64,000 bases of DNA, taken from positions 30,022 through 94,021 of IMG/VR virus record IMGVR_UViG_3300030329_003334, one strand, 5' to 3'. Below are positions 9,001 through 64,000 of this stretch, one piece after another. A program made the translations under genes and the position numbers. Every line of letters begins with the position of its first letter. Position 1 is the stretch's first letter. The notes beneath the pieces are model-generated. The model made no database searches. It saw only the letters and a program-made list of their open reading frames with translations, and was not told where the DNA came from. This DNA comes from a virus.

Positions 9001-10209
9001 CATGAGTATTTAATGGAAGGAATTACTTCTAGTGTAAAAGGAGAAGAATCTAATGTATTTTCTTCTAATAGTAAAGCAGGAGGATTAATGGTTATGTTTG
9101 ATATATTACAATCTCAAGATGAATTAGCTGAGCAAGCGGGAGGGCCTGAAAGATCTAAATTACATAAATTTAAGTTCTTTACAGATTCTGCTTATGCGAT
9201 GCAACATATTGGAGAACATAGTATGCAAAATATTACTATGTTAGCTATGCTTAGAAGATATAAAGTAGATCCTAGTAATGGAAAAATTTATAGAAATTCT
9301 GAAGCATATGCTAGAAAAAATGGATTATCTTATAATACTCCTGAAGAGAAAGCAGATATTCAAAAGAAATTTAAAGAGCTAGAATCTGTATACGATGTAT
9401 ATGAATTAGTAGATGGTTATACACAACTTAAAAAAGGAAGATTTATATCTGATAAAGAATGGTCTGAATTTAGACAAGAAATTATAGGTGTAAATCAATA
9501 TATGCATGGTATTTATAATAAAGAAGATGCGGGCGCCATGCAAAAATATGGTCTTGCAAGATTAGCAATACAATTTAGAAAATGGGCCCGTCCTGGATGG
9601 AACCGTAGATGGGGTAGTAAATTTGGACAATCTTATTGGAATGAAAGACGTAATATGTTAGATGAAGGTATGTATGTAACTACAGCTAAATTTACATGGC
9701 AATTATTAAAAGACTATAGAAACTTTTTTAGTAATTCTAAATTAAATTGGGATAGTCTCGATGAAACACAGAAAGCAAATGTTAAACGATCAGCTATGGA
9801 ATTATTACTTCTAATTAGTGTTATATTATTTACTCAAATGCTAAAAGGAATGGAAGAAGAAGACGATGATTTAAAAGAAAGTAAAGCATTTAATATTCTT
9901 ATGTATCAATCAGATAGATTATGGACTGAAATAGCTACTTATTCTCCTGTATACGGTTGGTTTAATGAGGCTAGTAAGTTAATGCAATCTCCTACTGCTT
10001 CTTGGAATATGGTTGAAGATGTATATAAATTAGCTTATAATACTTTTGCTTATCCATTTAGAACTGAAAAAGAAAGAATATTTAAATCTGGCGTTAATTA
10101 TGGAGATGATAAAATAAATACATATCTTAGAAAATCTGTTCCTTTATATAATCAAGTAGGTAGATGGAATAGATTAGAAAAACATAATAAATTTTATAAA
10201 CTATTCTAA
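6073..10209 (+). CDS. Large virion cargo/ejection protein with N-terminal zincin metallopeptidase motif
   Basis: DTIIHEFGH (HExxH at 6517-6531) followed by KEVLV; 1378 aa; lies directly after the RNAP as in crAss-like cargo clusters; hydrophobic segment near the C-terminus. Confidence 0.7.
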   Translation: MACRLIIKAKNGKDSKLFNDLNDIFGEEYAKNLYALANTDIFKTWLANKYESPDFSYKYDNNGEIEYRAILEFSESYDTTPISMARESSKNTTRKINLLKQTFRNVGINVSIIEDYDIVGRAQVDPATDENQAVIRLNPDKVFKDTIIHEFGHIYVDLLGEDHPLVIAGINQLKNTELWKQVEAAYPHLTPNKLAKEVLVTAIGREGAEIFDTQRDQSRFQRVLNAIFSAISRVLGLNSSNIAKRLATEMLNQNLQRNLSGKLSDYTQHSINVEEGLNQKELNKYLSNKIGNLHKQIRKFKSIAPEFSESLKDIVDEIQKADTHEQLEKLNTYISSTLGRVIQIEDDNGNVVERATGIEGRLIEVENMLDEIDRLKNAVAVKELNGKQLSQEDINRLEEDIKVKLMSVIRSLYHANVMVDSFNDISDLDDRAEYPPVIKKAIRSLQDNIGKIAKLRARSIRLGKRAFITQLKEYTSNKEILDNAENIFENNFDESGTQRWMDALADTNHSFIALVRKRVAEELDKKRLDVIRLKREWEDEVKILKQNGIKLEDFFEEVDGIKTGRFIQEYDEAEFYRLKSEMFDRYFSLMNRANALAKGTKERSELLKEAKKLIRDFYQENTQPIENWQQIVEAKKAKLSPERFEQWLKDNFYSGRGGRLYPRGKEVVEMKKEKFRNPKFDILMSDPVKKRFYEYYQRLINELTAHSNNDFLRRGFLPAVPLDQRNYIQALRDNVGWRTLQEEQEEFQEDEAKEVLVDETGKVINFIPFYYMTKLDQLDLKDINNESLTNEEIEERIKENKKIREENKRRHAERLDFNLEKTMPRFIDTALNHRAKTAMEEEVLFAREILTHTQIRKKTGSILGRGKRVIDKTFKQDMNEDRDATDDASESNILKHFDDWIQMVFYEKFEEDEGAWTKASRVLQNWASLRGIGWNVFSGINNKMYGFMQTHIEAAGSQFFGYSEYRKASSDYYANIHEYLMEGITSSVKGEESNVFSSNSKAGGLMVMFDILQSQDELAEQAGGPERSKLHKFKFFTDSAYAMQHIGEHSMQNITMLAMLRRYKVDPSNGKIYRNSEAYARKNGLSYNTPEEKADIQKKFKELESVYDVYELVDGYTQLKKGRFISDKEWSEFRQEIIGVNQYMHGIYNKEDAGAMQKYGLARLAIQFRKWARPGWNRRWGSKFGQSYWNERRNMLDEGMYVTTAKFTWQLLKDYRNFFSNSKLNWDSLDETQKANVKRSAMELLLLISVILFTQMLKGMEEEDDDLKESKAFNILMYQSDRLWTEIATYSPVYGWFNEASKLMQSPTASWNMVEDVYKLAYNTFAYPFRTEKERIFKSGVNYGDDKINTYLRKSVPLYNQVGRWNRLEKHNKFYKLF

Positions 10210-33654: not shown

Positions 33655-34036
33655 AAACATTAAAGACGGCTGGACTAATTATATGAAAGCCTTTGGAGAC
33701 TATCACGGAGAAAAGGTAAGTCCTCAAGTAGAAAAGATAGCTAGAGAAAGAGCTGATATTTGTAAAGGATGTCCTGAATTAAAAGAATCAGGATTTTATA
33801 AACTAGTAGATAAAGTAATAAATAGAATAGACGGCACGAAAGATCATAAAAAGGTTTTACATCGTGCTGAAACTCCTACAGTAGCTGATGAAAGCATGTG
33901 GGATGGAAGAACGTATAAGTGTGGACAATGTGGTTGTCAATTTCCTGCTAATGTATATTCTCCTGGTAAAACGTGTCCTATGGGTAAATGGGATGCATAT
34001 GAATTAGAAAATAACCAAGATTTAAACGTAGGATAA
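33641..34036 (+). CDS. Zinc-ribbon protein
   Basis: RADICKGC...CGQCGC...CPMGKW. Confidence 0.65.
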   Translation: MSIFKNIKDGWTNYMKAFGDYHGEKVSPQVEKIARERADICKGCPELKESGFYKLVDKVINRIDGTKDHKKVLHRAETPTVADESMWDGRTYKCGQCGCQFPANVYSPGKTCPMGKWDAYELENNQDLNVG

Positions 34037-34314
34037 TGAAAACAAATATTGAAATGGTAGGTAATAATATATTAGTATATATAGAATTGCCTAAAACAGA
34101 AACAGAATCAGGAATACAATTAACAGAGCAAACAGCTTCAACACTAAATAGAGATATAGTTGGAGAAGTAATGGCTATAGGACCTGAAGTTAATAATTTT
34201 TCTACAGGAGATAAGATTTTATTACCTCCTCATGGAAATACACCTATTAGTTATAAAGGCGAGGTTTATCATGTATTTAGAGAAACAAGTTTATTTGCTA
34301 AAGTAAATGGATAA
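34036..34314 (+). CDS. groES: Co-chaperonin GroES (Cpn10)
   Basis: GNNILV...KTETESGIQL...GEVMAIGP...GDKIL...YHVFRE. Confidence 0.85.
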   Translation: MKTNIEMVGNNILVYIELPKTETESGIQLTEQTASTLNRDIVGEVMAIGPEVNNFSTGDKILLPPHGNTPISYKGEVYHVFRETSLFAKVNG

Positions 34315-35713: not shown

Positions 35714-37410
35714 AATGGTTAGGACAATATATTATAGATTTTATAGCTAGATTTAGGTCTGATGTATATTTAGATTCTCCAACAGCTGGAGGATCTGATC
35801 CAGATAAATTTCTTGGTATAGATTCTAATAATAAAATTATATATAGAACTGGTAGCGAGGTTTTATCTGATATAGGAGCTGGTTCTGGTGATATAACTGG
35901 AGTAGTTGTAACAGCAGACGATACAAATACCGTATCTGATACAGCTGGTAGTGCAGATTTTGGTATAAAAGGTGGAGAAGGAATAGATACCTCTGTTGAT
36001 GGAACTGATATAGTTATAACTGGTGAAACCGCTTCTACCACAAACCCAGGCGTTGTCGAATTAGCAACCACAGCAGAAACAACTACTGGTACAGATACAG
36101 CTAGAGCAGTAACACCAGATGGCTTAAAAGATGGCTATCAAGGAAGTGCTAATGTTACTACGCTAGGAACTATAACATCTGGAGAATGGAATGGAGATGC
36201 TATAGTAAAAACATATATAGATCCAGATCAAAGAAATATAACACAAGTTGGTACGTTGACGAACTTATTACTATCATCTGCAGTTGCGGATAATCCAGCA
36301 ATTACTATTACAAATACTACTGACGATGATCAAGCCGCACAGATAATATTTAATAAACTAAGGGCTGATGATGGGGTTGCTACAGGACAAAATGTAGGTG
36401 AAATAAAATTTGATGGTCAAGATAGCGCACAAAACACGCAGAGGTATGCTATTATTACAGGTGAAATTGACGTATCAACTCACGGTCAAGAATCTGGGCA
36501 ACTAGTACTTGGTGTAGCAAGTCATAATGGTACAGTTCAATCTGGTCTTTCATTAGTTGGAGGTAGTGTTGCAGGTGAAGTAGATGCAACAATTGGAAGA
36601 GGAACCGCCTCAGTGACAACTGTTGCTGGTACATTAACAATGGGTAGTACTGCTACTTTAGATAACAGCGGTTTATTACAAGTAGCAAATCAAAGTAATA
36701 TAACGGGTGTTGGTACTATTTCTTCTGGAACTTGGCAGGGGACAGCTATTGCATCTGCTTATCTAGACGCTGATACAGCGCACCTAAGTGGTGCTCAAAC
36801 TATTGGAGGTGTAAAAACTATAGAGGAAGATGTGAAACTTCAATTTAGAGATGCTAATGCTTATATAAATTCTCCAGAAGCTAATGATATAGAAATTGCA
36901 GCTACAGATATAACTTTAGACGCGGATGGTACTATAAAATTAGAAGGACCAACTAGGTCTACTGGCCAAATACACATGACACATCATAATTTTAGTGATG
37001 ATATAGATACAACTAAACATTATGTAGGTTTAGCAAGAGGTGATTCAGAAAACACAGCTACAACTCAAATACAACTTCCTTTAGTTTTTCCAACAGCAGC
37101 AAAGTTATTAAAAATATATTTAAGATCTAATCAAAATTTAAGCGCAAAAGAAATTACATTTACACTGGAAACACAGGCTGCTGGGGTAACGTTTGGAACT
37201 GGACCAACTATTGTTGGCACCAAAGCGCTTTCTGGTCCTACAAATAGTAGTATAGTTACTTATGATATGGCCGCGGGCCACATTGATAGTGGTGATAATA
37301 TTGTAGACGCGGGTGATGCTGCTTACTTAGGTATACAATCAAGTGCTAGTACAAGTACAACTAAGTTTTATATAACTTGTGTTTGGGAAGTTGATTTTAG
37401 TTCAATATAA
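35710..37410 (+). CDS. Tail/head fibre protein
   Basis: ASTTNPGVVELATTAETTTGTDTARAVTP fibre repeat; repeated N(I/V)TxxGTIxSGxWxG; rich in G/T/A/D. Confidence 0.75.
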   Translation: MKWLGQYIIDFIARFRSDVYLDSPTAGGSDPDKFLGIDSNNKIIYRTGSEVLSDIGAGSGDITGVVVTADDTNTVSDTAGSADFGIKGGEGIDTSVDGTDIVITGETASTTNPGVVELATTAETTTGTDTARAVTPDGLKDGYQGSANVTTLGTITSGEWNGDAIVKTYIDPDQRNITQVGTLTNLLLSSAVADNPAITITNTTDDDQAAQIIFNKLRADDGVATGQNVGEIKFDGQDSAQNTQRYAIITGEIDVSTHGQESGQLVLGVASHNGTVQSGLSLVGGSVAGEVDATIGRGTASVTTVAGTLTMGSTATLDNSGLLQVANQSNITGVGTISSGTWQGTAIASAYLDADTAHLSGAQTIGGVKTIEEDVKLQFRDANAYINSPEANDIEIAATDITLDADGTIKLEGPTRSTGQIHMTHHNFSDDIDTTKHYVGLARGDSENTATTQIQLPLVFPTAAKLLKIYLRSNQNLSAKEITFTLETQAAGVTFGTGPTIVGTKALSGPTNSSIVTYDMAAGHIDSGDNIVDAGDAAYLGIQSSASTSTTKFYITCVWEVDFSSI

Positions 37411-37420
37411 AATAAATAAA

Positions 37421-37897
37421 ATGAAATTAAAAGTATTAAGATTTAGCAGTCAAGAGGATTCTACAAATGGATTATTGTTTAGAGAAACTGATTCAGGATT
37501 AGAATTTTTATGTTATACTCTAGAAGACGAAGCTAGAGATAAAAAAATAAGAAGTGAAACAAGAGTACCTTCTGGTACGTATGAAATTAAATTACGTAAA
37601 GAAGGAGGTTTTCATTCAAGATATAAGAAAAAATATGGTACTTGGCATAAAGGAATGTTACATATTACTAATGTACCAAATTTTGAATATATTCTGATAC
37701 ATACTGGAAATACAGATGAGCATACTGCTGGATGTTTGCTTGTGGGTGATTCACAAGAAAATAATATCATTATTAAAGATGGTTTTATTGGAAAGTCGAA
37801 TAATGCATATAAAAGAATATATCCAGAAATTGTAGAAGCAATTGAAAAAAATAATAAAGTATTAATTACATATATAGATTATGATGGCAATAAATGA
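37421..37897 (+). CDS. DUF5675-family putative endolysin/peptidase
   Basis: MKLKVLR...STNG.L...CYTLED...VPSGTY...VPNFEYILIHTGNT...TAGCLLVG; start revised to ATG at 37421. Confidence 0.8.
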   Translation: MKLKVLRFSSQEDSTNGLLFRETDSGLEFLCYTLEDEARDKKIRSETRVPSGTYEIKLRKEGGFHSRYKKKYGTWHKGMLHITNVPNFEYILIHTGNTDEHTAGCLLVGDSQENNIIIKDGFIGKSNNAYKRIYPEIVEAIEKNNKVLITYIDYDGNK

Positions 37898-38138
37898 TTA
37901 TCTTGATTCAGAAATATTAGATATTTCAATGAATAATGCATATAGATTATTAACAAATAAAGCAACCTTTGATCAGTTGTTTCCTTCTGATAATGATGAG
38001 GATGGATTTTGGATGCCTTATAGAAATTTTAAAAATCCTTCTGAAGAAGAGATAGATGATGTTATTGATTATTTCTGTGAGTTAGAAGAATATGAAAAAT
38101 GCGCTGAATTAGTAAAAATTAAAGAAAAGAAAAAATGA
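37881..38138 (+). CDS. Hypothetical protein with UVR-like C-terminus
   Basis: IDYFCELEEYEKCAEL. Confidence 0.6.
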   Translation: MMAINDYLDSEILDISMNNAYRLLTNKATFDQLFPSDNDEDGFWMPYRNFKNPSEEEIDDVIDYFCELEEYEKCAELVKIKEKKK

Positions 38139-40081
38139 GTAGTCATTGGGGTTTTCATTATTGGAGAATACATAGTTGTGTAGGAACACCATCTCCCTAT
38201 ACATGGTGGTTTCCATTTAAACCAAGTAGTACGGGTACAACCCTTATGTCTACAAGTAATAATGCCACATTTTATTCGATGGTAGGTTCTCCAGCTGTGG
38301 GGACATTTCTTCGGTATACTAATCCAGGATATTTAATAACACAACCAGGTCAGACACCAACTAATGATCCAGACACAGTTCTTTGTATGGAATATATGGG
38401 AAGGGCCGATACTACATTACCAAACCAATCAGCCAGTCTACAGGCTTGGATTATAGCTAATCATGGGTCAGGTAATATAGTTATAAAAGATTATGGTAAT
38501 AATTTTTTTACCAATCATGGTGGGCAGACATTTAGTTCAAACTCTTTGTGTTGTGATACTAGTTTTTTTGGCTTAGGAGTAGATGATCCAACTTTAACAG
38601 GGATACCACCAAAACCACCAAAACCGCCAACGGGGCTTCCAGGTCAAGTATATAGTCCTTGTGATCCTAAGCCAGCTATATTAAGTAATCCTGAATTTTG
38701 TATTAATTGTCATTCTGGCGGCTACTATGGAGCAGGCGGAGGTTGGGGCGGATCTGGAGAGCATCCTCATTGTCAGTGTTGTGAAGATACTTTTCCTGAT
38801 GATCCTATTGGTTCTAATCAACCTAGGCTGGGAAAAAGTGCTGATGATCAAAGTTTAAACGTTTATACAGGACTTCCTATAACTAATCAACCTAGGCTAG
38901 GAAGACTTTCTGAAGGTCAAGATATAGATATACATCCTGAAGGAGTTACTGGAGCTGTTTATAGTACCCATATTCAGAGGTTTAATACTGCCCCTGCGAC
39001 CTCTTGTACATCAAAGAGTGGTGTTGTCTCCTTTCACCTTGAGGCTGAAATAAGTATAGTACCTGGTCCATATGCTGGTTCAACACAATGGCCATATACT
39101 ACAGGTTATGCTGGTCCTCATGGTTGGATCACATCTAATAGCCCTGCTACAACCTGGTCTGGAGTAGGTGAACAAGAATGGGATATTTATCTTTTAGATG
39201 CAAATGGTATCTCTCTAACATTAGATCCAATAGTATTAGCAGCTTTTACAACTGGTACTCAGGCCCCTGGTTTTACTTTAGCTATAGCACATAATCCATC
39301 GCCACCAGGTTCTGGATTACCCTCTTATTATACTATTACTAAAACTAATCATACTTTTACAACTCCAGTTAATGGTTCGATCGACTCTCCCTCTTGGTAT
39401 GTATCTCAAGGTACATATCATGCAGGAATACTGGATTATAGAGTTGATGGTGTTTCATCAGACTTAGGTCTTAATAGTGTATGTAATTGTTGTACGACAT
39501 ATACAGCGTCAGGAACACCAGTTATTGGTACAACGCAATTAGATTGTCCCCATAGAAAAAGCGTTACTGTTGGCACTGTACCAGGTGTTCTTTGTCCTCC
39601 TGCATATTTTTGTGATGATTATAATTGCTTTGAAATTTTATATGCTGGAGATCCTGGTTGGATACCATATGGAAGTTATCCAGGCTCTGGAACATCCTCT
39701 TATACACCACCACCAACTATTTACAATCCAGCAACTCAAATTCTAGATTGGCAGGCTTTTAATACGGCTACTACTCATCCGAGAGGTCAGGCAGCTTTTG
39801 CACCAGGACAACCATGGCATGGATCTACAAATGTAAGTCAATTATGGGCAGCGCAAGGTATTATAAATAGTTATACGCCTTTTAAAGGTACTTTAGATGA
39901 TTGTATAAATTGTTGTGGTGGAATGAATCAACCAGCATATTTAAATGGAGGTTCTAATCCATTTTATGCTTGGGTGCAAGCTAATGGTTGGCAGTTTGGA
40001 CAAGGGCAACCATTATATGGACAATTTATGCCACATATGTATAGCAATTTTGGTATTACTGGTTGTGGAGTATATCCGTAA
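38135..40081 (+). CDS. Cys/Pro/Gly/Thr-rich putative virion surface protein
   Basis: 648 aa; N-terminal VGSP domain shared with 55244..56524; PPKPPKPP linker; NQPRLG duplicated; no signal peptide. Confidence 0.6.
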   Translation: MSSHWGFHYWRIHSCVGTPSPYTWWFPFKPSSTGTTLMSTSNNATFYSMVGSPAVGTFLRYTNPGYLITQPGQTPTNDPDTVLCMEYMGRADTTLPNQSASLQAWIIANHGSGNIVIKDYGNNFFTNHGGQTFSSNSLCCDTSFFGLGVDDPTLTGIPPKPPKPPTGLPGQVYSPCDPKPAILSNPEFCINCHSGGYYGAGGGWGGSGEHPHCQCCEDTFPDDPIGSNQPRLGKSADDQSLNVYTGLPITNQPRLGRLSEGQDIDIHPEGVTGAVYSTHIQRFNTAPATSCTSKSGVVSFHLEAEISIVPGPYAGSTQWPYTTGYAGPHGWITSNSPATTWSGVGEQEWDIYLLDANGISLTLDPIVLAAFTTGTQAPGFTLAIAHNPSPPGSGLPSYYTITKTNHTFTTPVNGSIDSPSWYVSQGTYHAGILDYRVDGVSSDLGLNSVCNCCTTYTASGTPVIGTTQLDCPHRKSVTVGTVPGVLCPPAYFCDDYNCFEILYAGDPGWIPYGSYPGSGTSSYTPPPTIYNPATQILDWQAFNTATTHPRGQAAFAPGQPWHGSTNVSQLWAAQGIINSYTPFKGTLDDCINCCGGMNQPAYLNGGSNPFYAWVQANGWQFGQGQPLYGQFMPHMYSNFGITGCGVYP

Positions 40082-40409: not shown

Positions 40410-40802
40410 ATGAGTATAATAAGTAAAATATTTTCAGCAGGAGCTGGAGAATTAGTTAAAAATGTAGGAGGTGTTATAGACAATCTTACTACTAGTAAAG
40501 AAGAAAAAATGGAAGCTGAACGCAAAATCAAAGATATGATTATGGGTTATGAAGCTGAAATGCAAAAACAAGTAACAGAGCGATGGTCGATGGATATGAA
40601 GTCTGATTCATGGCTTAGTAAAAATATAAGACCACTAGTTTTAATATTTCTAGTAGTATCTACAGTATTGTTAGTTTTTATTGACGCTGGAGTTATTTCT
40701 TTTGAAGTTAAAGCTTCATGGGTGGATTTATTACAATTAGTTCTTATAACAGTTATTGGTGCATATTTTGGAGGACGTTCACTTGAAAAAGTAAAAAAAT
40801 AA
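40410..40802 (+). CDS. Holin (3TM/GTA-holin-like)
   Basis: DNLTTSKEEK...RW..DM.SDSWLSKNIRP; two TM segments; AYFGGRSLEK. Confidence 0.8.
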   Translation: MSIISKIFSAGAGELVKNVGGVIDNLTTSKEEKMEAERKIKDMIMGYEAEMQKQVTERWSMDMKSDSWLSKNIRPLVLIFLVVSTVLLVFIDAGVISFEVKASWVDLLQLVLITVIGAYFGGRSLEKVKK

Positions 40803-54326: not shown

Positions 54327-54360
54327 AAGAGAGCGAGGGATTTATTCCCTCCCTCTTTTA
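54327..54360 (+). terminator. Intrinsic terminator after the capsid operon
   Basis: AGAGAGCGAGGGA-TTTAT-TCCCTCCCTCT-TTTA. Confidence 0.7.
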
Positions 54361-54381: not shown

Positions 54382-54609
54382 ATGGATCGAGTTCTCTGTA
54401 TTCTTCAAGCTTACGCTGCACAAATTGTATTAGACTGTGATAAATGTAATGAAGAGTTTCTAAGAAAGTTTTTAGAAGCTCATGCCTTATATAGGACTGT
54501 TATTATTGCTACTAATGAAGGCTGTGATCAGACAAAAATAGATAATGTTACTAAAACATTAGAAAATTATGTATTGACTATGGAATGCAGATATTGTGGT
54601 AATTGTTAA
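54382..54609 (+). CDS. Small Cys-rich protein, paralogous to the C-terminus of the next gene
   Basis: LDCDKCNEEFLRKFLEAHAL...CRYCGNC. Confidence 0.65.
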   Translation: MDRVLCILQAYAAQIVLDCDKCNEEFLRKFLEAHALYRTVIIATNEGCDQTKIDNVTKTLENYVLTMECRYCGNC

Positions 54610-54619
54610 TAATTAATTT

Positions 54620-55237
54620 ATGGCAACAAAAACAACATTAAATACAGGAGATAATACAAAAGAAATATTTCCAAATAGTAAGAGTACATTTACGACTACT
54701 GCAAAAGTAGACCGTCATTTAATTAGTCCTGCTCAGGATTGTAGTGGCTTTTTACTTGTATTAAGTTTAAATACTATTTTGGATGATCAAGATCCTAATC
54801 AAATAACTAATATGGCTATTACATTAGATGTAATACAACATAATGATGGAAGTACAACAACTTATAGTGATGGTACAGATTATGATATAGATTATTATAA
54901 TGATGAGCTTATATATGGAGTTTTTATTACTCATTCTTTTACTAGTGGATATTATACTATAAGATATAAAGTATCTGGAGATAATATTGATACCATATAT
55001 GTAGATAAAAAAATAAAAGTAGATTGTAATTGTTGTTTAAATAAAGCTTTAAAGAAACTGCATTCTTTAGAATGTGATGAATGTGATGATGAATATAGGA
55101 GAAAGTTTTTAAAAGCTTATGCTTTGAGTAAGGCTATTGAATTTGCACCTCATGCTACAAATAAAACTATGGTAGCTAGAGCAATTAAATTAAGAGACAA
55201 TTTATGTAATAACTTATGTGATTGTAAAAACTGTTAA
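54620..55237 (+). CDS. Beta-sandwich plus Cys-rich helical domain protein
   Basis: SGYYTIRY; CNCCL...LECDECDDEYRRKFLKAYAL...CDCKNC. Confidence 0.65.
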   Translation: MATKTTLNTGDNTKEIFPNSKSTFTTTAKVDRHLISPAQDCSGFLLVLSLNTILDDQDPNQITNMAITLDVIQHNDGSTTTYSDGTDYDIDYYNDELIYGVFITHSFTSGYYTIRYKVSGDNIDTIYVDKKIKVDCNCCLNKALKKLHSLECDECDDEYRRKFLKAYALSKAIEFAPHATNKTMVARAIKLRDNLCNNLCDCKNC

Positions 55238-55243
55238 AAAATA

Positions 55244-56524
55244 ATGGCTATTATATATAAATTTACTAATTGTATTGCGCCTAATACTGATATATACCCA
55301 TTTTTCTGTGGTAACTCAAATGGTGTAATGAGTATTAATTGTACTTCACCGCCTACACCTATAGCTACAATGGTTGCAGCAAATGCTGCTTGGTATAATG
55401 CTGTAGGTTCTCCTGTTCCTGGAACAGTTATACAAATTAATGGTTCTGCAGAGTTTACATATATGGGTAGTGCAACCTATACTCCAGGATCACTTCCAAA
55501 TCTTACTCCATGGGTAAGTGCGATTAATAGTGTTAGTACTCTTACAACAGGGTGTACAACTAACAGACCACCTCCAATAACAACAAAACATCATAAATGG
55601 ATGGAGTGTGATGGTCCATCAACTTTATTTAATGTAATAGAACAAGGACTTGTGGCGTATACTGCAGTGCTTTCAAATCAATGGTGGGTTAGTGTAGGTT
55701 CTCCTGCTTCTGGTGAGGTAGTTAAAATTACAGTAGATGGAAATCCTAAATGTTTAATGTATAAAGGTTGGGATAATATAGCTCAAAGTTCCTTTGATGA
55801 TTTATCTTCTTCTAGTGCTAGTATTTATAGTGATTGTGTAGATTGTGAAGCTATTTACGGTTGTACAGACCCAACAGCCACTAATTATGATCCAAATGCA
55901 ACAATTGATGATGGAAGTTGTATATATACTGGAAGTGTGGTTAGAGGTTGTACTGATCCTAGTGCAACTGTTGCAACATATAACCCTAATGCAACTGCTG
56001 ATTGTGATGGTAATGTTATAGGTGGTTCAGTTTATAATTCATTTTCTGGTGGTTATGGAGATACTCAATGTTGTGTTTATCCCATTGCTATTCTTGGGTG
56101 TACTGATCCATTATCGTGTAATTATAATCCAAATGCTACAGTCGATGATGGATCATGTTGTGATTTGTTGGGTTGTATGGATCCAGCAGCTACCAACTAT
56201 GATCCAAATGCGTGTTGCGATGACGGTTCTTGTATCTATCCGCCAAATCCTTCTATTTCAGGATGTACCGATCCTACAGCTCTTAATTATAATCCTTTAG
56301 CTACTGCAGATGATGGTTCTTGTCAGTATCCATGTACTCCAGAAATAGTTGATCCTAATTCTGATCCAACAGATCCAAGTACTCCAAATCCTTGTTCTAT
56401 ATTACAGTTGGCTAATCAATGGTCGGCTAATGTTAGTATAGGTACAATAGATTGTAGTCCTACTTTAATGAATGATTTAATAATGATAATAGCATTAAAT
56501 GATATGCTTAATGAAATAGTTTAA
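55244..56524 (+). CDS. GCTD-repeat Cys-rich protein
   Basis: Five GC(T/M)DP...NY(D/N)P.A..DDGSC-type repeats (one degenerate); two N-terminal VGSP domains. Confidence 0.75.
   Translation: MAIIYKFTNCIAPNTDIYPFFCGNSNGVMSINCTSPPTPIATMVAANAAWYNAVGSPVPGTVIQINGSAEFTYMGSATYTPGSLPNLTPWVSAINSVSTLTTGCTTNRPPPITTKHHKWMECDGPSTLFNVIEQGLVAYTAVLSNQWWVSVGSPASGEVVKITVDGNPKCLMYKGWDNIAQSSFDDLSSSSASIYSDCVDCEAIYGCTDPTATNYDPNATIDDGSCIYTGSVVRGCTDPSATVATYNPNATADCDGNVIGGSVYNSFSGGYGDTQCCVYPIAILGCTDPLSCNYNPNATVDDGSCCDLLGCMDPAATNYDPNACCDDGSCIYPPNPSISGCTDPTALNYNPLATADDGSCQYPCTPEIVDPNSDPTDPSTPNPCSILQLANQWSANVSIGTIDCSPTLMNDLIMIIALNDMLNEIV
55859..56330 (+). repeat. Tandem GCTDPxAxNYxPxAxxDDGSC protein repeats
   Basis: Directly visible in the translation. 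Confidence 0.85.
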
Positions 56525-56526
56525 TT

Positions 56527-59500
56527 ATGCCAAATATAGGAGATTATATACCATCGGTTGATGGATTTTGTTATTGGATAGATCCTTTGGATTCGCAACA
56601 TATAAAGGTTGCTAAAGTGATGTATACTAGTATAATACAAAATGTATTAGGTACTGCTAATACAACTCCTAGTATTGCTGCAGGTACTCCAGCGGTTAAT
56701 GGAAATATTCAGACTAGAATATGGGGATGTGATGCGATATATCAAGCTCCTAATACTACGAATCCAGATAATGGAACTACATATCCTTCAGAAAGTCATA
56801 CAGATGGTGTAGGAAATACTATAGGTATGATTCATTATTGGAATGCTACTTATGGTATAACTCCGTCTTATTCTAATACAGATCCTAATTGCGATTTTTA
56901 TAATGTAACAAGAAAGCTTATGGGTTGTGGACCTATGGTATATAGTAATTGTAATACATACAATGCTAATTATTATATTTATAGTAGTTCTCCATTTCAT
57001 TCGGCAGCCTCAGGATTAGAATCATATTTCGAAAATGGAGTTGGAACTTATCATTGGTATTTACCCGCTATAGACGAGTTAGTAGAAGTTGTCCAAAGTA
57101 TAGGAAGTGTGGGTGCTAATACAATAGGAGATCCTAATGGTATTCATAAAGTTTATCCTTCTTCTACTCAAGTATCAGAAGACGAAGAAACAAATGGTTG
57201 TTTTGATTTAAATGGTGCTAATCTTAGTGATTATAAATATGGTACAGCTCCAAGTAGAAGACTTAATGTGTGGGGAGTTGATACTACTGGAGAACCGTTA
57301 ATGGGTACTGGAAGTTCTAATACTATTATTTTACCTAAGAATGTTTGGACACAGTTTATTATGATAAAGGAATATAACATTCCTGAAGATACTTATGATT
57401 GTAGTAATGGAACTTGTGTTCTTAATCAGTTTGGTTTAGGACAATATCAAGGACCAACAGCATTAGCAGATTGTCAAGCTCTTTGTGGCGTAGTAGACTG
57501 TACTAATCAACATCCTGTATGTGACGCTGCTGCTGTTACTAATATTAGTGTTGCTGGTGCTAATGATGGTCAAGTAACATTACCTTTTCATTATGAAGAT
57601 CAATTTGGTGCTACAATACCTAATCCTGTAAGCTCTACATTTACATTAACTTATGAATTATTTATAGATATTAGTGGTAGTTGGAGTAGTCAAGGAGGTG
57701 CAGGACAATTAAATTCTAGTTCACAAACATCTTTTACTTATACAAATCTTGGTCCTGGAAGTTATAAACATACTATATTTGATGTTGAAGGATGTTCATG
57801 TGATCATTTTTTTACTATAACTGAACCTGCTGATCCTTGTGCAAGTACTAATATAGTAACATCAAATGTATCTTCTGTTTTACCTGGTTGTACAACAAAT
57901 TTAAATGGAGGAGAAAGTACTTATACTATAAGCGGAGGAACATCACCATATAATATAACTAATGTTTTTTCTCCTTCATGTTATAGTACATATTTACAAA
58001 ATTATACTAGTACAGGATCTATTACTTTTCCTAATTTATGCCAAGGAAACTATGAATGGGAAATAGAAGATGAAGATGGTTGTACAACAATGCTTACTTT
58101 TACTGTAGGATGTGAACAATGTGATATTTCATTATCAGGAGTTGTAAAACCGCCTCAATGTTTTGGTGGGAATAATCCTTTAGGAGGCTATGAAGCTACA
58201 GTAAATACAACTAATATTTCTACTTTTCAATATACACTAACTGGTAGTTTAGGATATTCTTTTAGTACTACTACTGGTCAATTAGGTGTTTATACTTTTA
58301 CAAATTTACCGCCAGATACATATACTTTGGTTGTAGTAGATGATACAACATTATGTACAGATACTATAACTTTTGCTGTAAGTACTCCTCCAACTATAAT
58401 AATTTCTGGAATTGTATCTCATGTAAGTATGTATGGATTAAGCGATGGTTCAATAACTTTATCTGTGTCAGGAGGAACACCTCCATTTAGTTATATATGG
58501 AATACAGGAGCAACAACACAGAATTTAACAGGTATTCCAGCAGGAACTTATACAGTTTCTATTACAGATATGAGCGGTTGTACAGCAGAACAAACATTTG
58601 TAGTAGAAGAACCAGAATGTAATTTAGTTATAGCAGGTTCTGTTACATGTCCTTCAGAAGGTACTGTAGATAGTACTACAACTGCAACAGCTACTATAGA
58701 TGTAGATTCTTCTACTGTAGCTGATTATGATGGAAAAAGATTTTTAATAGATATACCTAATAGTTCAGGAGGTTTTGGGTATTACGAAGTATGGTTTGAT
58801 GCTACAGGATCTACTACAGCACCTACTGCTATTACGGGATATACTCAAATAGAGATTGATATTAGTGCTGCAACAACTGTTGCTGATATTGCTACACAAA
58901 TAAAAATTGCATTAAATTTAAATACATCTAATATTACAGTTACTGCTAATTCGGATATTGTAAGTATTACTTTTGATAATGCAGGTACTGCAGTATTAGA
59001 ACATGCAAGTTCTAATGGTACTACTAATTCTCAATTAAATATAAGTTTAACTCAACAATCTGGTAATGATGGCTCTATTAATTTATATACACCTTTAGGA
59101 GGATTACCTCCTTATACTTATAATTGGATAGGTCCTGATTCATTTTCAGACACTACACAAGATATTGATGGTTTATCTTCAGGATTATATACAGTAACTG
59201 TTTGTGATTCTTTAGGTTGTTGTGAAGATAAAACTTTTATAGTTCAGACTGGATGTTGTATTAGTTCAGACGATGCTGATGATGCAGTTGATTATTTAAA
59301 TTCTATATTAGCTAGATGTGGATGCGAAATAGATCCTTGTAAAGATGGTGTTACTTCAACACCACCGACAACAAAACCTAAAAGTGGTGGTTCTAGTAGA
59401 ACATTTACTAATTTATATCATCAATCAATTTCAATAGGTGGAATTAATTTAACAACTACTCCACTGAATAATAGACAAAATGTAAGAGTTCCTCAAGTTT

Positions 59501-60399
59501 CAAAAGAATTACGAGCGATTATTACTAGTCCTTCTTTTCGGAAAGATCAAATTAGTCAAGTATCTGTTTTAGAAAAAACAGCACAATTAGCTAATAAAAA
59601 TGAAATTAAAGGTTTTAAAGAGTATGCTAAATTTGTAGTAGAATCAGGAATGGAAAGTGTATATAAAAGTCTAGTAATAGATAATCCGAGTTTTCAAAAT
59701 CCTTTATTAAATAAAGATGTAAATGTAATAGCAGAATTAACAGATAGAGAAATAGAAAAAATACAAAAAGAAAATAAAGATGATCTTTCTTTTGTAGAAT
59801 TAAGTAATCCTGTAATAAAAAAATCTATTGGTAGTAATATATATGAAGATCCTACAGATGAACCATCTGAACCTGGTAGCCGCGATAGGGACGAACCAGA
59901 AACTGGTGGTTGTTTCTTAGAAGGAACTAAAGTAAGAACTCCTAAAGGAGAAAAGATGATAGAAAGTATAATAAAGGGAGATGTTGTTTATTCTTATAAT
60001 CTAGAAACAAAAAAGATTGTTAAAAATACCGTAGATAAATTACTAGTTCATAGAGATTATAATGATGAAGCAGTATTATTAATATTATCTAATAATGAAG
60101 AATTGTATGTTACATTAAATCATCCATTCTTTAGTATTTCAGATGATAAATTTAAGAGACTAGAGAAGTTTGAAATCGGAGATTTAGTATATTATTATAA
60201 AAATGGAGAATTAGAGATTGTTAAAATAAAACAGATGAAACCAATTGGTACTTTTGAAGTACAGTATAATTTAGAGTTAGAAGGCGAACCAAGAAATTAT
60301 TTTGCTAATAATACTTTAGTTCATAATGCTCAAGAAAAAAATGGTGAGGGAGAAACTGAAGGTGAATACGAGGGAGAATGTGAAGGACTGGATTGTTAA
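56527..60399 (+). CDS. Modular adhesin-like protein: DUF1566/Lcl-like lectin fold, SprB repeats, C-terminal Hint domain
   Basis: IGD...YWID, GVGNT, WYLPAIDEL, SSTQ; DGSITLSVSGGTPPFSYIWNTGATTQNLTGIPAGTYTVSITDMSGC; CFLEGT...NYFANNTLVHN. Confidence 0.8.
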   Translation: MPNIGDYIPSVDGFCYWIDPLDSQHIKVAKVMYTSIIQNVLGTANTTPSIAAGTPAVNGNIQTRIWGCDAIYQAPNTTNPDNGTTYPSESHTDGVGNTIGMIHYWNATYGITPSYSNTDPNCDFYNVTRKLMGCGPMVYSNCNTYNANYYIYSSSPFHSAASGLESYFENGVGTYHWYLPAIDELVEVVQSIGSVGANTIGDPNGIHKVYPSSTQVSEDEETNGCFDLNGANLSDYKYGTAPSRRLNVWGVDTTGEPLMGTGSSNTIILPKNVWTQFIMIKEYNIPEDTYDCSNGTCVLNQFGLGQYQGPTALADCQALCGVVDCTNQHPVCDAAAVTNISVAGANDGQVTLPFHYEDQFGATIPNPVSSTFTLTYELFIDISGSWSSQGGAGQLNSSSQTSFTYTNLGPGSYKHTIFDVEGCSCDHFFTITEPADPCASTNIVTSNVSSVLPGCTTNLNGGESTYTISGGTSPYNITNVFSPSCYSTYLQNYTSTGSITFPNLCQGNYEWEIEDEDGCTTMLTFTVGCEQCDISLSGVVKPPQCFGGNNPLGGYEATVNTTNISTFQYTLTGSLGYSFSTTTGQLGVYTFTNLPPDTYTLVVVDDTTLCTDTITFAVSTPPTIIISGIVSHVSMYGLSDGSITLSVSGGTPPFSYIWNTGATTQNLTGIPAGTYTVSITDMSGCTAEQTFVVEEPECNLVIAGSVTCPSEGTVDSTTTATATIDVDSSTVADYDGKRFLIDIPNSSGGFGYYEVWFDATGSTTAPTAITGYTQIEIDISAATTVADIATQIKIALNLNTSNITVTANSDIVSITFDNAGTAVLEHASSNGTTNSQLNISLTQQSGNDGSINLYTPLGGLPPYTYNWIGPDSFSDTTQDIDGLSSGLYTVTVCDSLGCCEDKTFIVQTGCCISSDDADDAVDYLNSILARCGCEIDPCKDGVTSTPPTTKPKSGGSSRTFTNLYHQSISIGGINLTTTPLNNRQNVRVPQVSKELRAIITSPSFRKDQISQVSVLEKTAQLANKNEIKGFKEYAKFVVESGMESVYKSLVIDNPSFQNPLLNKDVNVIAELTDREIEKIQKENKDDLSFVELSNPVIKKSIGSNIYEDPTDEPSEPGSRDRDEPETGGCFLEGTKVRTPKGEKMIESIIKGDVVYSYNLETKKIVKNTVDKLLVHRDYNDEAVLLILSNNEELYVTLNHPFFSISDDKFKRLEKFEIGDLVYYYKNGELEIVKIKQMKPIGTFEVQYNLELEGEPRNYFANNTLVHNAQEKNGEGETEGEYEGECEGLDC
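59911..60327 (+). other. Hint (intein-like, BIL/PT-HINT type) autoprocessing domain, 139 aa
   Basis: Block A CFLEGTKV; block B VTLNHPFF; block F QYNLEL; terminal HN followed by Ala; no endonuclease. Confidence 0.88.
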
Positions 60400-60408
60400 A
60401 ATTAAATT

Positions 60409-61458
60409 ATGAAAAAAATACTATTAATATTATTAATTATTTTTATTTCTTGCACAGTTCCAAAGAAATGCTGCTCACAAGAAATAAAGAAAATATTTAA
60501 ATTTTCTACATTTTATGCGGCAGCAAGTGGTGGTACATCTATATCAGATGTAGATGTTTTTTCTGTAACTAATGGTTTAGAAACATCTATTGTACAAACT
60601 CCGTTTGATTATAATTTAGCATTTGGTATTAGAAAGATTGCTAGATTTGGATATGAAAATAGAGCTAACACATTTTATGATGGTACAGAAACATCATGGT
60701 CTGATGCTGCTAATATCGGTAAGAAAAGTGGATTAGAGTTTTTATTTGAAGCAGATATAAAAAGACAAGAAGGTGTTGACTATTTAGACCAACATCATTT
60801 TATTAGATATGTAGCTGATAGTTGGATATTAAAAGGAGAATATTTACAAGATGGATTTGCAGATATTAAATATTTTGAAACTTCGCAAAGATATAGATAT
60901 AATATAGGTAAATTATCATTTAATATAGGTGCTGCACAAAGATTATCTGAGCCTTATGGGTATGATCCTTTAGAAGAGTGGTTATTAGATAATGGTGGAA
61001 TACACTATACATATTTAGCTATACAAGAAGGATATAATATAGATGTGTATAATTCTATTTATACAGATCCTGATGGAAAAGTAGTTGCTACAAATCCAGA
61101 AGTTTGGGAAGAAGTTGTTATACCTCAAATGTTATCTGATTATACAGAGAAAAAAAGAAATGAGTTAGAGAGAAAAATGCAACAATCTTTAGTAATAGGA
61201 TTTGATTATTATTACTATAAAAAAGATTTTTGGCTTCATAGTTGGGGAAATATAATGCCCTGGCACTACGATGATGGAGGCACTTTTTCTTATCATAATT
61301 ATAATGATGGGAATCAGTGGTATGATTATTCTGGTGGACTTATATTTGGGTATAAATTAAGTAAAAGTTTAGGTACTTTTATAGAAGGAAAATATAATAA
61401 ATACTGGAATAGAGAGTGGTATGATTTTAAGTTTGGTGTAAATTATATCATATTTTAA
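60409..61458 (+). CDS. Outer-membrane beta-barrel protein
   Basis: Signal peptide; alternating aromatic strands; C-terminal beta-signal DFKFGVNYIIF. Confidence 0.72.
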   Translation: MKKILLILLIIFISCTVPKKCCSQEIKKIFKFSTFYAAASGGTSISDVDVFSVTNGLETSIVQTPFDYNLAFGIRKIARFGYENRANTFYDGTETSWSDAANIGKKSGLEFLFEADIKRQEGVDYLDQHHFIRYVADSWILKGEYLQDGFADIKYFETSQRYRYNIGKLSFNIGAAQRLSEPYGYDPLEEWLLDNGGIHYTYLAIQEGYNIDVYNSIYTDPDGKVVATNPEVWEEVVIPQMLSDYTEKKRNELERKMQQSLVIGFDYYYYKKDFWLHSWGNIMPWHYDDGGTFSYHNYNDGNQWYDYSGGLIFGYKLSKSLGTFIEGKYNKYWNREWYDFKFGVNYIIF

Positions 61459-61485
61459 AACAAGTATTAATTAAAACTAATAAAC

Positions 61486-61710
61486 ATGGATAATGTATTT
61501 AATTTAGTAACAAGTTTTGTAAGTAAAATGACAAGTTTATTTATGACTATGCTATCGTTTGGTATAATGGCAGAAATCTTATTTGGTGGACCTATGATGG
61601 GATTATCTGTTATTTCGAACATAATGGATCTGATAAACATGTTAGGAAGTAATGGTGTTATAGGACTTATAACATTAGTAGTATTATTTGGATTATTAAA
61701 TAAAGAATAA
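61486..61710 (+). CDS. Small two-TM membrane protein
   Basis: EILFG...SVISNI...LGSNGVIGLI. Confidence 0.65.
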   Translation: MDNVFNLVTSFVSKMTSLFMTMLSFGIMAEILFGGPMMGLSVISNIMDLINMLGSNGVIGLITLVVLFGLLNKE

Positions 61711-61714
61711 TACT

Positions 61715-62083
61715 ATGTATACCTATAATATTAAATTACTAAGAGTTATTGATGGAGATACAATAGACGCACAAATTGATTTAGGATTTGATGTTTCGGT
61801 AAAGAAAAGGATTCGATTCTTAGGGGTTAATACCCCTGAGTCTCGGACCAGAGACTTAGAAGAAAAAGCTAGGGGTTTAGCTGCCAAAGATAGGGTTAAA
61901 CAGTTGCTAGAAGGAACAAATACAATACGATTAGTTTCACATGGAGTTGGAAAATACGGAAGATGTTTAGGAGAATTAAGTATAGATGTATTAGATGGAA
62001 AAGAATGTTTAACAATGATTAGTATAAATGAATTATTAATTAAGGAAGGCCATGCTGTAGAATATCATGGTGGAAAAAGATAA
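61715..62083 (+). CDS. Thermonuclease (SNase-like)
   Basis: RVIDGDTI...IRFLGVNTPES...GKYGRCLG...LIKEGHA. Confidence 0.88.
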   Translation: MYTYNIKLLRVIDGDTIDAQIDLGFDVSVKKRIRFLGVNTPESRTRDLEEKARGLAAKDRVKQLLEGTNTIRLVSHGVGKYGRCLGELSIDVLDGKECLTMISINELLIKEGHAVEYHGGKR

Positions 62084-62087
62084 AATT

Positions 62088-62252
62088 ATGAATTGGATAA
62101 ATAGTTGGAAAGAAGGTAATAAAAAGGAAAAGTATAATATGGAAATTAGATTAGGAAAACTTACCATATTAGAAATGAAATATTGCGCATGTTCAGAAAA
62201 GAAATGTGCTAAATTTAGAATGATGTTGTTTAACTTAGGATTTGAAATATAA
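62088..62252 (+). CDS. Hypothetical small protein
   Basis: MNWINSW...RMMLFNLGFEI; start revised to ATG at 62088. Confidence 0.55.
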   Translation: MNWINSWKEGNKKEKYNMEIRLGKLTILEMKYCACSEKKCAKFRMMLFNLGFEI

Positions 62253-62527
62253 TGGCAAAAGAATTAAATGAAGAGACTGGTTTTACGGTCAGTATAAAAA
62301 CAATGATCGCTGTAGGTTTTGCTATGGCAACTATAATAGGAATGTGGTTTGCTTTACAAGCAGATATAGCGGAAGCAAAAGAGCTTCCCAAACCAGATAT
62401 TTCCAGAATGGAATTTAATATGAAAGATGAAAATATCCGAAATACTATTATAGAAACTAGAGATGATGTTAAAAAACTAGAAGAAAGAATGATCAGAATG
62501 GAAGATAAAATAGATGATTTAAGATGA
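62252..62527 (+). CDS. Membrane-anchored coiled-coil protein
   Basis: One TM segment, then a heptad-rich C-terminus. Confidence 0.65.
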   Translation: MAKELNEETGFTVSIKTMIAVGFAMATIIGMWFALQADIAEAKELPKPDISRMEFNMKDENIRNTIIETRDDVKKLEERMIRMEDKIDDLR

Positions 62528-62886
62528 AAGAAACTTGGAGAATTTTTTGTATATATCTACTAATACTTAGTTTAGTATTATTTGGAGGAATGGCTTTTGG
62601 TCAAAGTCCTTGTAAAAAAGATGTGTGTGTTGTAGAATTTAATGCAAGCTGGAATTCAGCAAATGGTGTAGATTATCTAAATGATCTTACTGATTGTGGG
62701 ATTAAAAAAATAAGTATAGATGAAGGAGATTGGCAAAAGAAATATAATATAGTTATAGTTCCTACTATTATAGTTTTTAATGGGGACGAAGTAAAAAGAT
62801 TTCAAGCTGATCTTAGTTTTAAACTATTAGCAACTAAAGAAGAAATACAAGGAGTTGTTGATGAAATTATAATGAGCGATTTTTAA
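62524..62886 (+). CDS. Exported thioredoxin-fold protein lacking CxxC
   Basis: Signal peptide; VVEFNASWNSAN; KYNIVIVPTIIVFNGDEVKRF (cis-Pro region). Confidence 0.7.
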   Translation: MKETWRIFCIYLLILSLVLFGGMAFGQSPCKKDVCVVEFNASWNSANGVDYLNDLTDCGIKKISIDEGDWQKKYNIVIVPTIIVFNGDEVKRFQADLSFKLLATKEEIQGVVDEIIMSDF

Positions 62887-62887
62887 T

Positions 62888-64000
62888 ATGAAAAGAATAC
62901 CTGATATATTATACCCTTGGATAGCAATATATATTGCTGTCTTTTTAGTAGCAATAAGTGCATTTTTTAATGTAGCCTTTAGTCAAAATACCTGGGTAAA
63001 CTTTAAAGTACAATATGATTTCTATGGAGTTCAGGAATCTAATTTCTTTATGGTTAATGACAGCTCTGGACAACAAGTTTTTTATCATCAACCAACAGTA
63101 TCTTATGAATATTTAGATACGACTATACAATTACAATCTGGTAATTATACAGTATCATTAACAGATAACTATGGTGATGGATGGACATCTAATTTACCAT
63201 CTTGGTTTAAGATGCAGAATACTTGTCAGGGATTAATGATAGACTGGCAGTTACAAGGACTTAATTTCTTTTTAAGAGATACAACTGTAAATATAATGCC
63301 TTGTCCTCCTCCTTATGGAGCATGTACTGATCCTTTAGCTTTAAATTATGATTCACTAGCAGGTTGGGATGATGGCAGCTGTATATATCCACCTTGTACA
63401 GGTTTAGATACATTTTATGTTTTAAATTATTGTCAAGGAGCTCAAAATAGAGTTCACTATAAATGGACAAATATGCCAAATCCTAGTTGCAGAATGGCGT
63501 ATTATACTAGAACAACAGATCCAAACACATTAGGAAATGTTTGGTATCCTTATCCTACAAACTGGTCAAATACAGGTGTAATATTTAGTAATTCTCAAAA
63601 TAATACTACATATTATTTCTTAGGTATGTTAGCTGATTCAAGTTTAACAGATACCTTAGTTGTAACAACTATAGAATGTATACCAGGATGTATGGATCCT
63701 GCTGCTTTAAACTATAATCCATGGGCAAACGTAGATGATGGTAGCTGTCAAATGCCTCCAGCGAATTGTACGGTAGGAGAATCTAATATAGTAGTAACTG
63801 TAATACCAGATACATATCCAGGAGAAACTTCCTGGGAAATAGCAGACACAACAGGAACTATATTAGCAACTTCACCTCCGTTCACTCAAGTGGGTATTCC
63901 AGTGGTAACTGAAGTTTGTATTCCAAATGGAACTGTTATAGAATTTACTATGTTTGATTCTTTTGGAGATGGTTTATGTGGATCATGTTATGGAGGTGTA
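62888..64000 (+). CDS. Secreted GCTD-repeat protein (T9SS-cargo-like), 3'-truncated; not in ORF track
   Basis: Open from ATG at 62888 to the window end (371 codons); signal peptide ...VAFS|Q; TDNYGDGW; ACTDPLALNY..DDGSC; GCMDPAALNYNP..DDGSC; PDTYPGETSW; DSFGDGL. Confidence 0.8.
   Translation, partial: MKRIPDILYPWIAIYIAVFLVAISAFFNVAFSQNTWVNFKVQYDFYGVQESNFFMVNDSSGQQVFYHQPTVSYEYLDTTIQLQSGNYTVSLTDNYGDGWTSNLPSWFKMQNTCQGLMIDWQLQGLNFFLRDTTVNIMPCPPPYGACTDPLALNYDSLAGWDDGSCIYPPCTGLDTFYVLNYCQGAQNRVHYKWTNMPNPSCRMAYYTRTTDPNTLGNVWYPYPTNWSNTGVIFSNSQNNTTYYFLGMLADSSLTDTLVVTTIECIPGCMDPAALNYNPWANVDDGSCQMPPANCTVGESNIVVTVIPDTYPGETSWEIADTTGTILATSPPFTQVGIPVVTEVCIPNGTVIEFTMFDSFGDGLCGSCYGGV

Follow-up and report, generated by a model that had tools for sequence, protein, structure and literature searches.

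A putative envelope cassette with an exported repeat protein in a gene island of a crAss-like phage

We analysed a gene island that begins at position 54382 of a 64,000-nucleotide stretch of viral DNA (referred to below as the window) and runs past its end at position 64000. The window corresponds to bases 30022-94021 of a 94,021-bp IMG/VR virus record (IMGVR_UViG_3300030329_003334). This record carries a 117-bp direct terminal repeat, and the genome is therefore considered complete; the end of the window is the end of the contig and lies inside the repeat. An initial annotation had read the island as one adhesin and surface-display system encoded by a co-directional run of genes. All the open reading frames (ORFs) listed for this run exist, and all lie on the + strand. 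They are treated here as two units, unit 1 (54382-60399), which encodes Cys-rich proteins without signal peptides, and unit 2, which starts at position 60409 and encodes a predicted outer-membrane (OM) beta-barrel, a small protein with one transmembrane (TM) segment, an exported thioredoxin fold and a large exported protein with Cys-rich GCTD repeats. Signal peptides and TM segments were judged from hydropathy.

The first gene of unit 2 encodes a protein of 349 amino acids (aa) (60409-61458, + strand), with a signal peptide containing a lipobox-like ISC followed by ..CCSQ, and with a C-terminal Phe (..NYIIF). The AlphaFold2 model (pLDDT 76) has 12 long strands, and its fold matches (Z 13-14, 163-200 residues aligned) include the 12-strand barrels EstA, NalP, KdgM, NanC and Tsx. 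Its signal peptide, the closed barrel of the model and the C-terminal aromatic residue identify this protein, as modelled, as an OM beta-barrel, in agreement with the initial annotation, which had placed such a barrel after a lectin-SprB-Hint gene. It belongs to no family in Pfam, PHROGs or NCBIfam, and 27 of its relatives are likewise without a Pfam match. Relatives are encoded in 413 viral contigs, and in a large protein collection they amount to 3687 clusters, all marine and all without a name, while no match was found among 50,697 GenBank phage records. A search of 185,579 species genomes gave three matches, all in contigs of metagenome-assembled genomes (MAGs) labelled Parvibaculum, Sphingobacteriales and Rickettsiales (L088, L089 and L090). 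The Rickettsiales MAG, the only tested MAG that gave a result, also has a crAss capsid gene and therefore probably includes a mis-binned phage contig. A relationship of the barrel to the PorP/SprF proteins was considered and rejected, as there was no PF11751 match and hhalign against 14 PorP/SprF domains gave a probability of 0.4%.

Further downstream, a 91-aa protein (62252-62527, + strand) has a single N-terminal TM segment (residues 17-37) and a charged C-terminal part of ~55 aa, which is probably helical. The stop codon of its gene overlaps by 4 nt the start of the next one, which encodes a 120-aa exported protein (62524-62886, + strand) with an SPI-type signal, AFG/Q. A profile built from 24 homologues of this protein matched thioredoxins in the PDB (E 7e-9; 2VIM and many others). 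The motif FNA.WN..N is invariant in these homologues, with N..N in place of CxxC; the cis-Pro of VPT is retained, and the C-terminal MSDF is invariant. Judged by this profile, the protein is a thioredoxin fold lacking the redox-active CxxC and, because CxxC is absent, it cannot be the oxidase for the disulfides of the repeats. Its relatives are encoded in 502 viral contigs.

The last gene of the unit starts at position 62888 (+ strand), and the window holds the first 371 of its 1097 codons (62888-64000); it continues past the 117-bp repeat at genome positions 118-2298. The 1097-aa product begins with a signal peptide (AFS/Q), followed by beta-sandwich domains with D..GDGW, 18 GCTD repeats, a module of the form ..YCC..WD..C and a type A C-terminal domain (CTD) of a type IX secretion system (T9SS). 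Its hydrophobic segment covers residues 4-34 with Gln at +1, and the signals of its homologues all end in ..Q. Gln at +1 after the signal peptide is known as the Bacteroidetes Q-rule (PMC5837995). When a strict GCTD pattern was counted against shuffled sequences, 18 repeats were found in this protein, 3 in a 426-aa protein of unit 1 and none in a 1290-aa protein of the same unit, with at most 1 in the shuffles. The hydrophobic segment and the 18 strict repeats are in line with the signal-peptide GCTD-repeat protein of the initial annotation, which had also proposed to read past position 64000 for a T9SS CTD. Such a domain is present: the last 75 aa match Por_Secre_tail above both curated cut-offs (PF18962, 35.3 bits, cut-off 27; TIGR04183, 32.1 bits, cut-off 23), and the last 110 aa alone score 39.4 bits with PF18962.

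All 47 complete homologues of this exported protein, hereafter called the cargo, share a C..PYWLND..YCC..WD..C module, and a CTD is detectable by Pfam in 11 of them, including that of the window. There was one weak match to the repeat protein among the 50,697 GenBank phage records. GCTD repeats were also found in 5 genomes of a sample of 400 Bacteroidota genomes, and of the five bacterial proteins checked, four have a signal peptide ahead of the repeats and a Por_Secre_tail after them. As bacterial proteins have this same architecture, the cargo is very likely, by its sequence, a hijacked T9SS substrate. These tags give good support to its export by way of Sec and the T9SS of the host, and secretion itself is presumed. 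The type A CTD, the Q-rule and the crAss-like lineage described below suggest that the host belongs to the Bacteroidota.

To see which genes accompany the barrel, neighbours were counted in the best 80 loci among the 413 viral contigs with barrel relatives (clade 1). The 91-aa protein was present in 73 of these loci, the thioredoxin-like protein in 70 and a signal-peptide GCTD protein in 57, and when all their ORFs were clustered, no other family occurred in more than 29 loci. Starting from the thioredoxin profile, we obtained 49 loci with 4 kb on both sides from the 502 contigs; the barrel was encoded in 48, and the TM protein and a GCTD-repeat protein in all 49. The genes are contiguous, some stops and starts overlap, and two orders are seen, either barrel-TM-thioredoxin-cargo or TM-thioredoxin-cargo-barrel. 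The cassette was found only in viral contigs, the three MAG contigs being the only matches in the species genomes. The contigs that bear it are crAss-like, but distant from the window phage: in one complete relative genome the barrel is 79% identical to that of the window, and the capsid protein 25%. The conservation of gene neighbourhood that the initial annotation proposed as a check holds for the four cassette genes, which occur together in 48-49 of the 49 loci, but not for the genes of the 75-aa, 205-aa and 1290-aa proteins of unit 1. These are found in 0-1 of the 80 cassette loci and are kept in close relatives only, so that the run cannot be regarded as one system.

A second barrel clade, 33% identical to the window barrel, has relatives in 96 viral contigs, and neighbours were again counted in the best 80 loci. 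The TM protein is present in 65-75 of these and the thioredoxin fold in 71, while GCTD proteins occur in only ~5; in 77 of the 80 the gene after the barrel encodes an exported protein of another kind. Since clade 2 pairs the core with another exported protein, the initial view of the barrel and the thioredoxin as dedicated helpers of GCTD-repeat T9SS cargo is not upheld. The clade-2 exported protein (L099-L178, e.g. L144:6707-7399) carries a W.NDGWEDC.D..DE motif like that of LDL-receptor class A and long acidic repeats of the form (V/I)EY..DT, and it ends in a short tail. Homology of its N-terminal Cys module with the YCC module of clade 1 was rejected (hhalign probability 2%).

Unrelated exported proteins in these loci share a short C-terminal motif. 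In clade 1 it occurs in 40 of 227 ORFs with a signal peptide vs 2 of 512 without, and in clade 2 the corresponding counts are 61 of 248 vs 4 of 958, although many of these ORFs are homologous and the counts are not independent. Profile searches gave no significant link between the tail families. We also rejected the short tails as detectable T9SS CTDs: Pfam found none in 36 of the 47 cargo homologues, and hidden Markov models built for the full CTD, for the short tail and for that of clade 2 matched one another weakly or not at all. In some loci further exported proteins are encoded between the thioredoxin and cargo genes (L025:12111-13115, L037:12041-13075, L042:12745-13245 and L029:12283-12801). 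All end in a short tail, ..YD.xG[KR]V.TD.KKN.IYI....KFI..., and one of these families has a real CxxC (EEFTGIYCGFCPDGH).

Three smaller ORFs lie between the barrel and 91-aa genes of the window. A 74-aa protein with two TM-like segments (61486-61710, + strand) is an occasional insert that 1-3 of 80 related loci contain. Next comes a 122-aa staphylococcal-nuclease-type endonuclease without signal peptide (61715-62083, + strand; PF00565, E 1.4e-10; phrog_452, E 9e-38), a mobile insert present in 20 of the 80 clade-1 loci. The nuclease gene has 72% DNA identity over 128 nt to endonuclease genes of the Prochlorococcus myophages P-SSM4, P-RSM3 and P-SSM3, and from its sequence appears to be a small gene common to unrelated marine phages. 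The third, a 61-aa ORF (62067-62252, + strand), occurs in 9 of 80 clade-1 and 27 of 80 clade-2 loci. Hydropathy, the family matches and the PDB profile match agree with the 2-TM protein, nuclease, TM protein and exported CxxC-less thioredoxin fold named in the initial annotation.

The GC content is ~30% and even across the region. Terminase and portal genes were identified in the phage genome, together with a crAss-type major capsid protein (PF23898, 424 bits) and the crAss tail ring proteins 3/4 (PF25710), 2 (PF25702) and 1 (PF24228); on these capsid and ring protein matches the phage is a member of the Crassvirales. The complete record with its terminal repeats, the crAss capsid and the ring proteins speak for phage DNA, as the initial annotation had assumed, and not for a chimeric assembly. 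A chimera with host DNA was ruled out by the even GC content and by the occurrence of the cassette in viral contigs only. The closest cultured relative is Flavobacterium phage FpV4, with a capsid identity of 45%. The island is flanked by the ring 3/4 gene and the gene of a 481-aa protein on one side, and by the ring 2 and ring 1 genes (genome positions 7232-9301) on the other; in FpV4 exactly this position, between gp17 and the ring 2 gene, is occupied by unrelated genes. A terminator-like hairpin with a T run behind it (54335-54351, + strand) separates the island's first gene from the capsid-module gene of the 481-aa protein. In a promoter scan, sigma-70 matches were at chance level and the Bacteroidota -7 motif was barely enriched.

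None of the four proteins of unit 1 has an N-terminal hydrophobic segment. The first is a 75-aa protein with 7 Cys (54382-54609, + strand), which is paralogous to the C-terminal part of the second (38% over 40 aa, E 2e-8); copies that are 71-88% identical follow the 481-aa gene in short related contigs. The second, a 205-aa protein with a C-terminal Cys-rich helical module (54620-55237, + strand), has no family match in Pfam, PHROGs or NCBIfam, is kept at 87% identity in locus L182 and is probably a fibre adaptor. The 75-aa and 205-aa genes are kept after the 481-aa gene only in close relatives of the phage, and unit 1, on the sequences compared, is specific to this phage lineage. The third protein, of 426 aa and with 27 Cys and GCTD..NY.P.A..DDGSC repeats (55244-56524, + strand), is matched in other loci by its repeats only and is probably a virion fibre or decoration protein.

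The fourth protein, of 1290 aa (56527-60399, + strand), is composed of an N-terminal region, SprB repeats (PF13573, 49.6 bits, cut-off 28), a Hint domain and a 23-aa acidic tail. Its N-terminus gave no Pfam or PDB sequence match, and its earlier label of lectin was not confirmed; a pattern scan of the viral contigs gave no relatives of the protein. The Hint domain (residues 1129-1267, nt 59911-60327; PF07591, 28.3 bits, cut-off 27.7; TIGR01445, 29.1 bits, cut-off 24.5) begins with Cys1 in GGCFLEG and ends with His-Asn. Because the residue after this final His-Asn is Ala, and not the Cys, Ser or Thr of inteins, classical splicing is unlikely on sequence grounds. The nearest solved chain is PDB 2LWY, a bacterial intein-like (BIL) domain (E 8e-6). 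Like BIL and pretoxin Hint domains, this one is C-terminal and begins with Cys, but it is followed by the acidic tail only, without a toxin domain. Apart from the lectin label, hydropathy and the SprB and Hint cut-offs corroborate the earlier description of CxxC adaptors, a GCTD-repeat protein and a SprB-Hint protein without signal peptides. The claim that the same repeat is used twice is supported to the extent that GCTD repeats are present in the exported and in the signal-less proteins, and likewise in large signal-less proteins of related phages. Such proteins, ~1500 aa long, are encoded upstream of the barrel in L029, L031, L034, L035, L036 and L079 (~3.4-8.1 kb per locus). Each has 4-5 GCTD repeats and a C-terminal ..FC.DCN.., reminiscent of the paired Cys in the 75-aa and 205-aa proteins.

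Lysis genes are found near the cassette in many relatives. A holin gene (phrog_3427) lies within 6 kb in 24 of 50 clade-2 loci and an M15-type endolysin gene (phrog_894) in 19 of 50, and in 26 of 80 clade-1 loci the cargo gene is followed by an endolysin homologue, which 17 of the 49 loci of the thioredoxin-based set also have. We give an even chance to the following explanation, taken as a whole: a complete marine crAss-like phage carries this segment as a variable island within its late (virion) operon, unit 2 (from 60409 up to genome position 2298) is a mobile envelope cassette of three constant genes and one swappable exported gene, and the cassette has a late envelope function tied to lysis and release. 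The unit 1 proteins would be made in the cytoplasm and most likely become virion fibres and small docking adaptors, and the products of unit 2 would be delivered to the host envelope late in infection. Sec would export the 1097-aa repeat protein, whose type A CTD would be recognised by the host T9SS, leaving the cargo on the cell surface or released from it. The outer membrane would receive the barrel and the inner membrane the 91-aa protein, and the thioredoxin, redox-dead, would reside in the periplasm, the three forming a constant core that works with the swappable exported protein. At the end of infection this ensemble could serve lysis and release, either by breaching the outer membrane or by coating the lysing cell and its debris.

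Several observations weigh against this explanation. The holin of the window (40410-40802) lies 20 kb from the cassette, and an endolysin of the type seen in the relatives is not present in the window phage. A lysis device has no obvious need for a large, fast-changing repeat protein, and the N-terminal model of the cargo is weak (pLDDT 50), with generic beta-sandwich matches only (Z ≤7) and nothing informative from a protein atlas. Thirty-six of the 47 cargo homologues end in a 38-aa tail without Pfam-detectable CTD, which is too short for the seven-strand CTD fold described as essential (PMC11285876). The placement of unit 1 in the virion rests solely on position and absent signal peptides, and the localisation and secretion of the cassette products are predicted.

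A dedicated folding and display line for an adhesin is less likely, although it comes next in our ranking, ahead of a pure spanin analogue. In this four-part display, which is close to the view of the initial annotation and to which we attach tentative and limited credence, the barrel would anchor the cargo in the outer membrane or let it pass, the thioredoxin would chaperone the Cys-rich repeats or the C-terminal tail in the periplasm, and the 91-aa protein would be the tether of the assembly at the inner membrane. Such a display would serve to mask receptors, to prevent superinfection or to make infected cells adhere to hosts or particles. It would account for a variable exported protein always encoded beside the core genes, in both clades and both gene orders and at times overlapping the barrel gene, for the short C-terminal motif shared by unrelated exported proteins and for the invariant former active-site face of the thioredoxin, and autotransporter barrels are among the best fold matches. 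PorP-like barrels that serve as anchors for adjacently encoded cargo with a type B CTD (PMC9143113) offer a precedent, with a secreted surface protein beside an OM barrel of ~300-350 aa, but the CTD of the window is of type A, which does not need a private barrel, and the barrel shows no PorP/SprF relationship (no PF11751, hhalign 0.4%). Moreover, the tails of different families are without significant profile similarity, the motif counts come from homologous ORFs, and a thioredoxin without redox cysteines cannot form the disulfides of the repeats. A further, unlikely reading is that the four genes are a surface-anchoring machine, in which the barrel, with the thioredoxin and the inner-membrane protein, captures exported proteins by a short C-terminal beta-tail, a cut-down relative of the T9SS signal. 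If so, a single conserved anchor on the dying host cell could take up a different adhesin-like protein from each phage.

The proximity of the core to endolysin or holin genes in a third to half of the related loci also suits a new spanin-like, OM-breaching lysis device of Bacteroidota phages, composed of the three core genes, with the T9SS cargo as an unrelated accessory in the same island; we consider this improbable. As in the two-component spanins (lambda Rz/Rz1), the gene of an OM partner accompanies that of a small inner-membrane protein, the 91-aa one, whose periplasmic part is charged and probably helical, here with a periplasmic protein that completes an envelope-spanning layout, and flavobacterial phages rarely have annotated spanins (PMC8776804). 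The OM partner is, however, a 349-aa barrel instead of the small lipoprotein of an o-spanin, the 91-aa protein is short for an i-spanin, with one TM segment and a periplasmic part of only ~55 aa, and the cassette has in addition a thioredoxin fold and an exported protein. This fourth gene is as constant as the core three, which a spanin leaves unexplained, and in the window genome the cassette is far from the holin gene. The fold matches to Tsx (Z 13.0), KdgM (Z 13.5) and NanC (Z 13.1) would allow the barrel to be a nutrient channel of the Tsx or KdgM/NanC type that raises nucleoside or sugar uptake during infection, the other genes being unrelated to it. We regard this as very improbable, as all 12-strand barrels score alike and the fold does not single out channels, the barrel gene lies in the late operon, and a channel would not explain why this gene is so tightly linked to those of the TM protein, thioredoxin and exported protein.

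Two earlier papers have noted T9SS cargo encoded by phages, in 'Cryophage' (Bellas et al. 2020, PMC7468147) and in crAss-like contigs that have T9SS sorting domains close to their head genes (de Jonge et al. 2019, PMC6949934). These cases resemble ours in that a lytic-type Bacteroidota phage encodes a type A CTD protein, presumably uses the host T9SS and has a cargo that varies between related phages. They differ in the cargo, which is a glycoside hydrolase, PA14 or BACON protein there and a GCTD-repeat protein here, and in that the window cargo belongs to a conserved four-gene envelope cassette, undescribed in those papers. Phage products for the host outer membrane are known (lambda Lom and Bor, T5 Llp, and PF24653, the Phage_OMP of cyanophages), but no sequence relationship to the barrel was found, PF24653 surfacing only as a weak language-model neighbour. 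In contrast to these, the barrel family is found in uncultured marine phages only and is conserved far better than the capsid genes of its carriers.

The core of barrel, TM protein and thioredoxin is described in neither the literature nor the family libraries that were searched. It is widespread, with barrel relatives in hundreds of marine viral contigs, and the cassette may represent a common step in the way ocean phages handle the envelope of Bacteroidota, a group with a major part in the degradation of algal carbon. OM breaching, coating of lysed-cell debris and surface display are its candidate roles.

Other genes of the window were noted in passing. A 92-aa protein (34036-34314) matches a phage GroES-like co-chaperonin family (phrog_3188, E 4e-12). 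At 37379-37897, 2.5 kb upstream of the holin gene, a 172-aa protein of phrog_1501 (function unknown) contains HTGN....TAGCLLVG, which we take to resemble L,D-transpeptidase-type active sites. Because of this resemblance and because phrog_1501 homologues are found near lysis genes in related loci, the protein is a candidate endolysin. Between its gene and that of the holin lies a 648-aa ORF (38135-40081) without PHROG or Pfam match, and the region that holds it is the only stretch of raised GC content (0.39 vs ~0.30).

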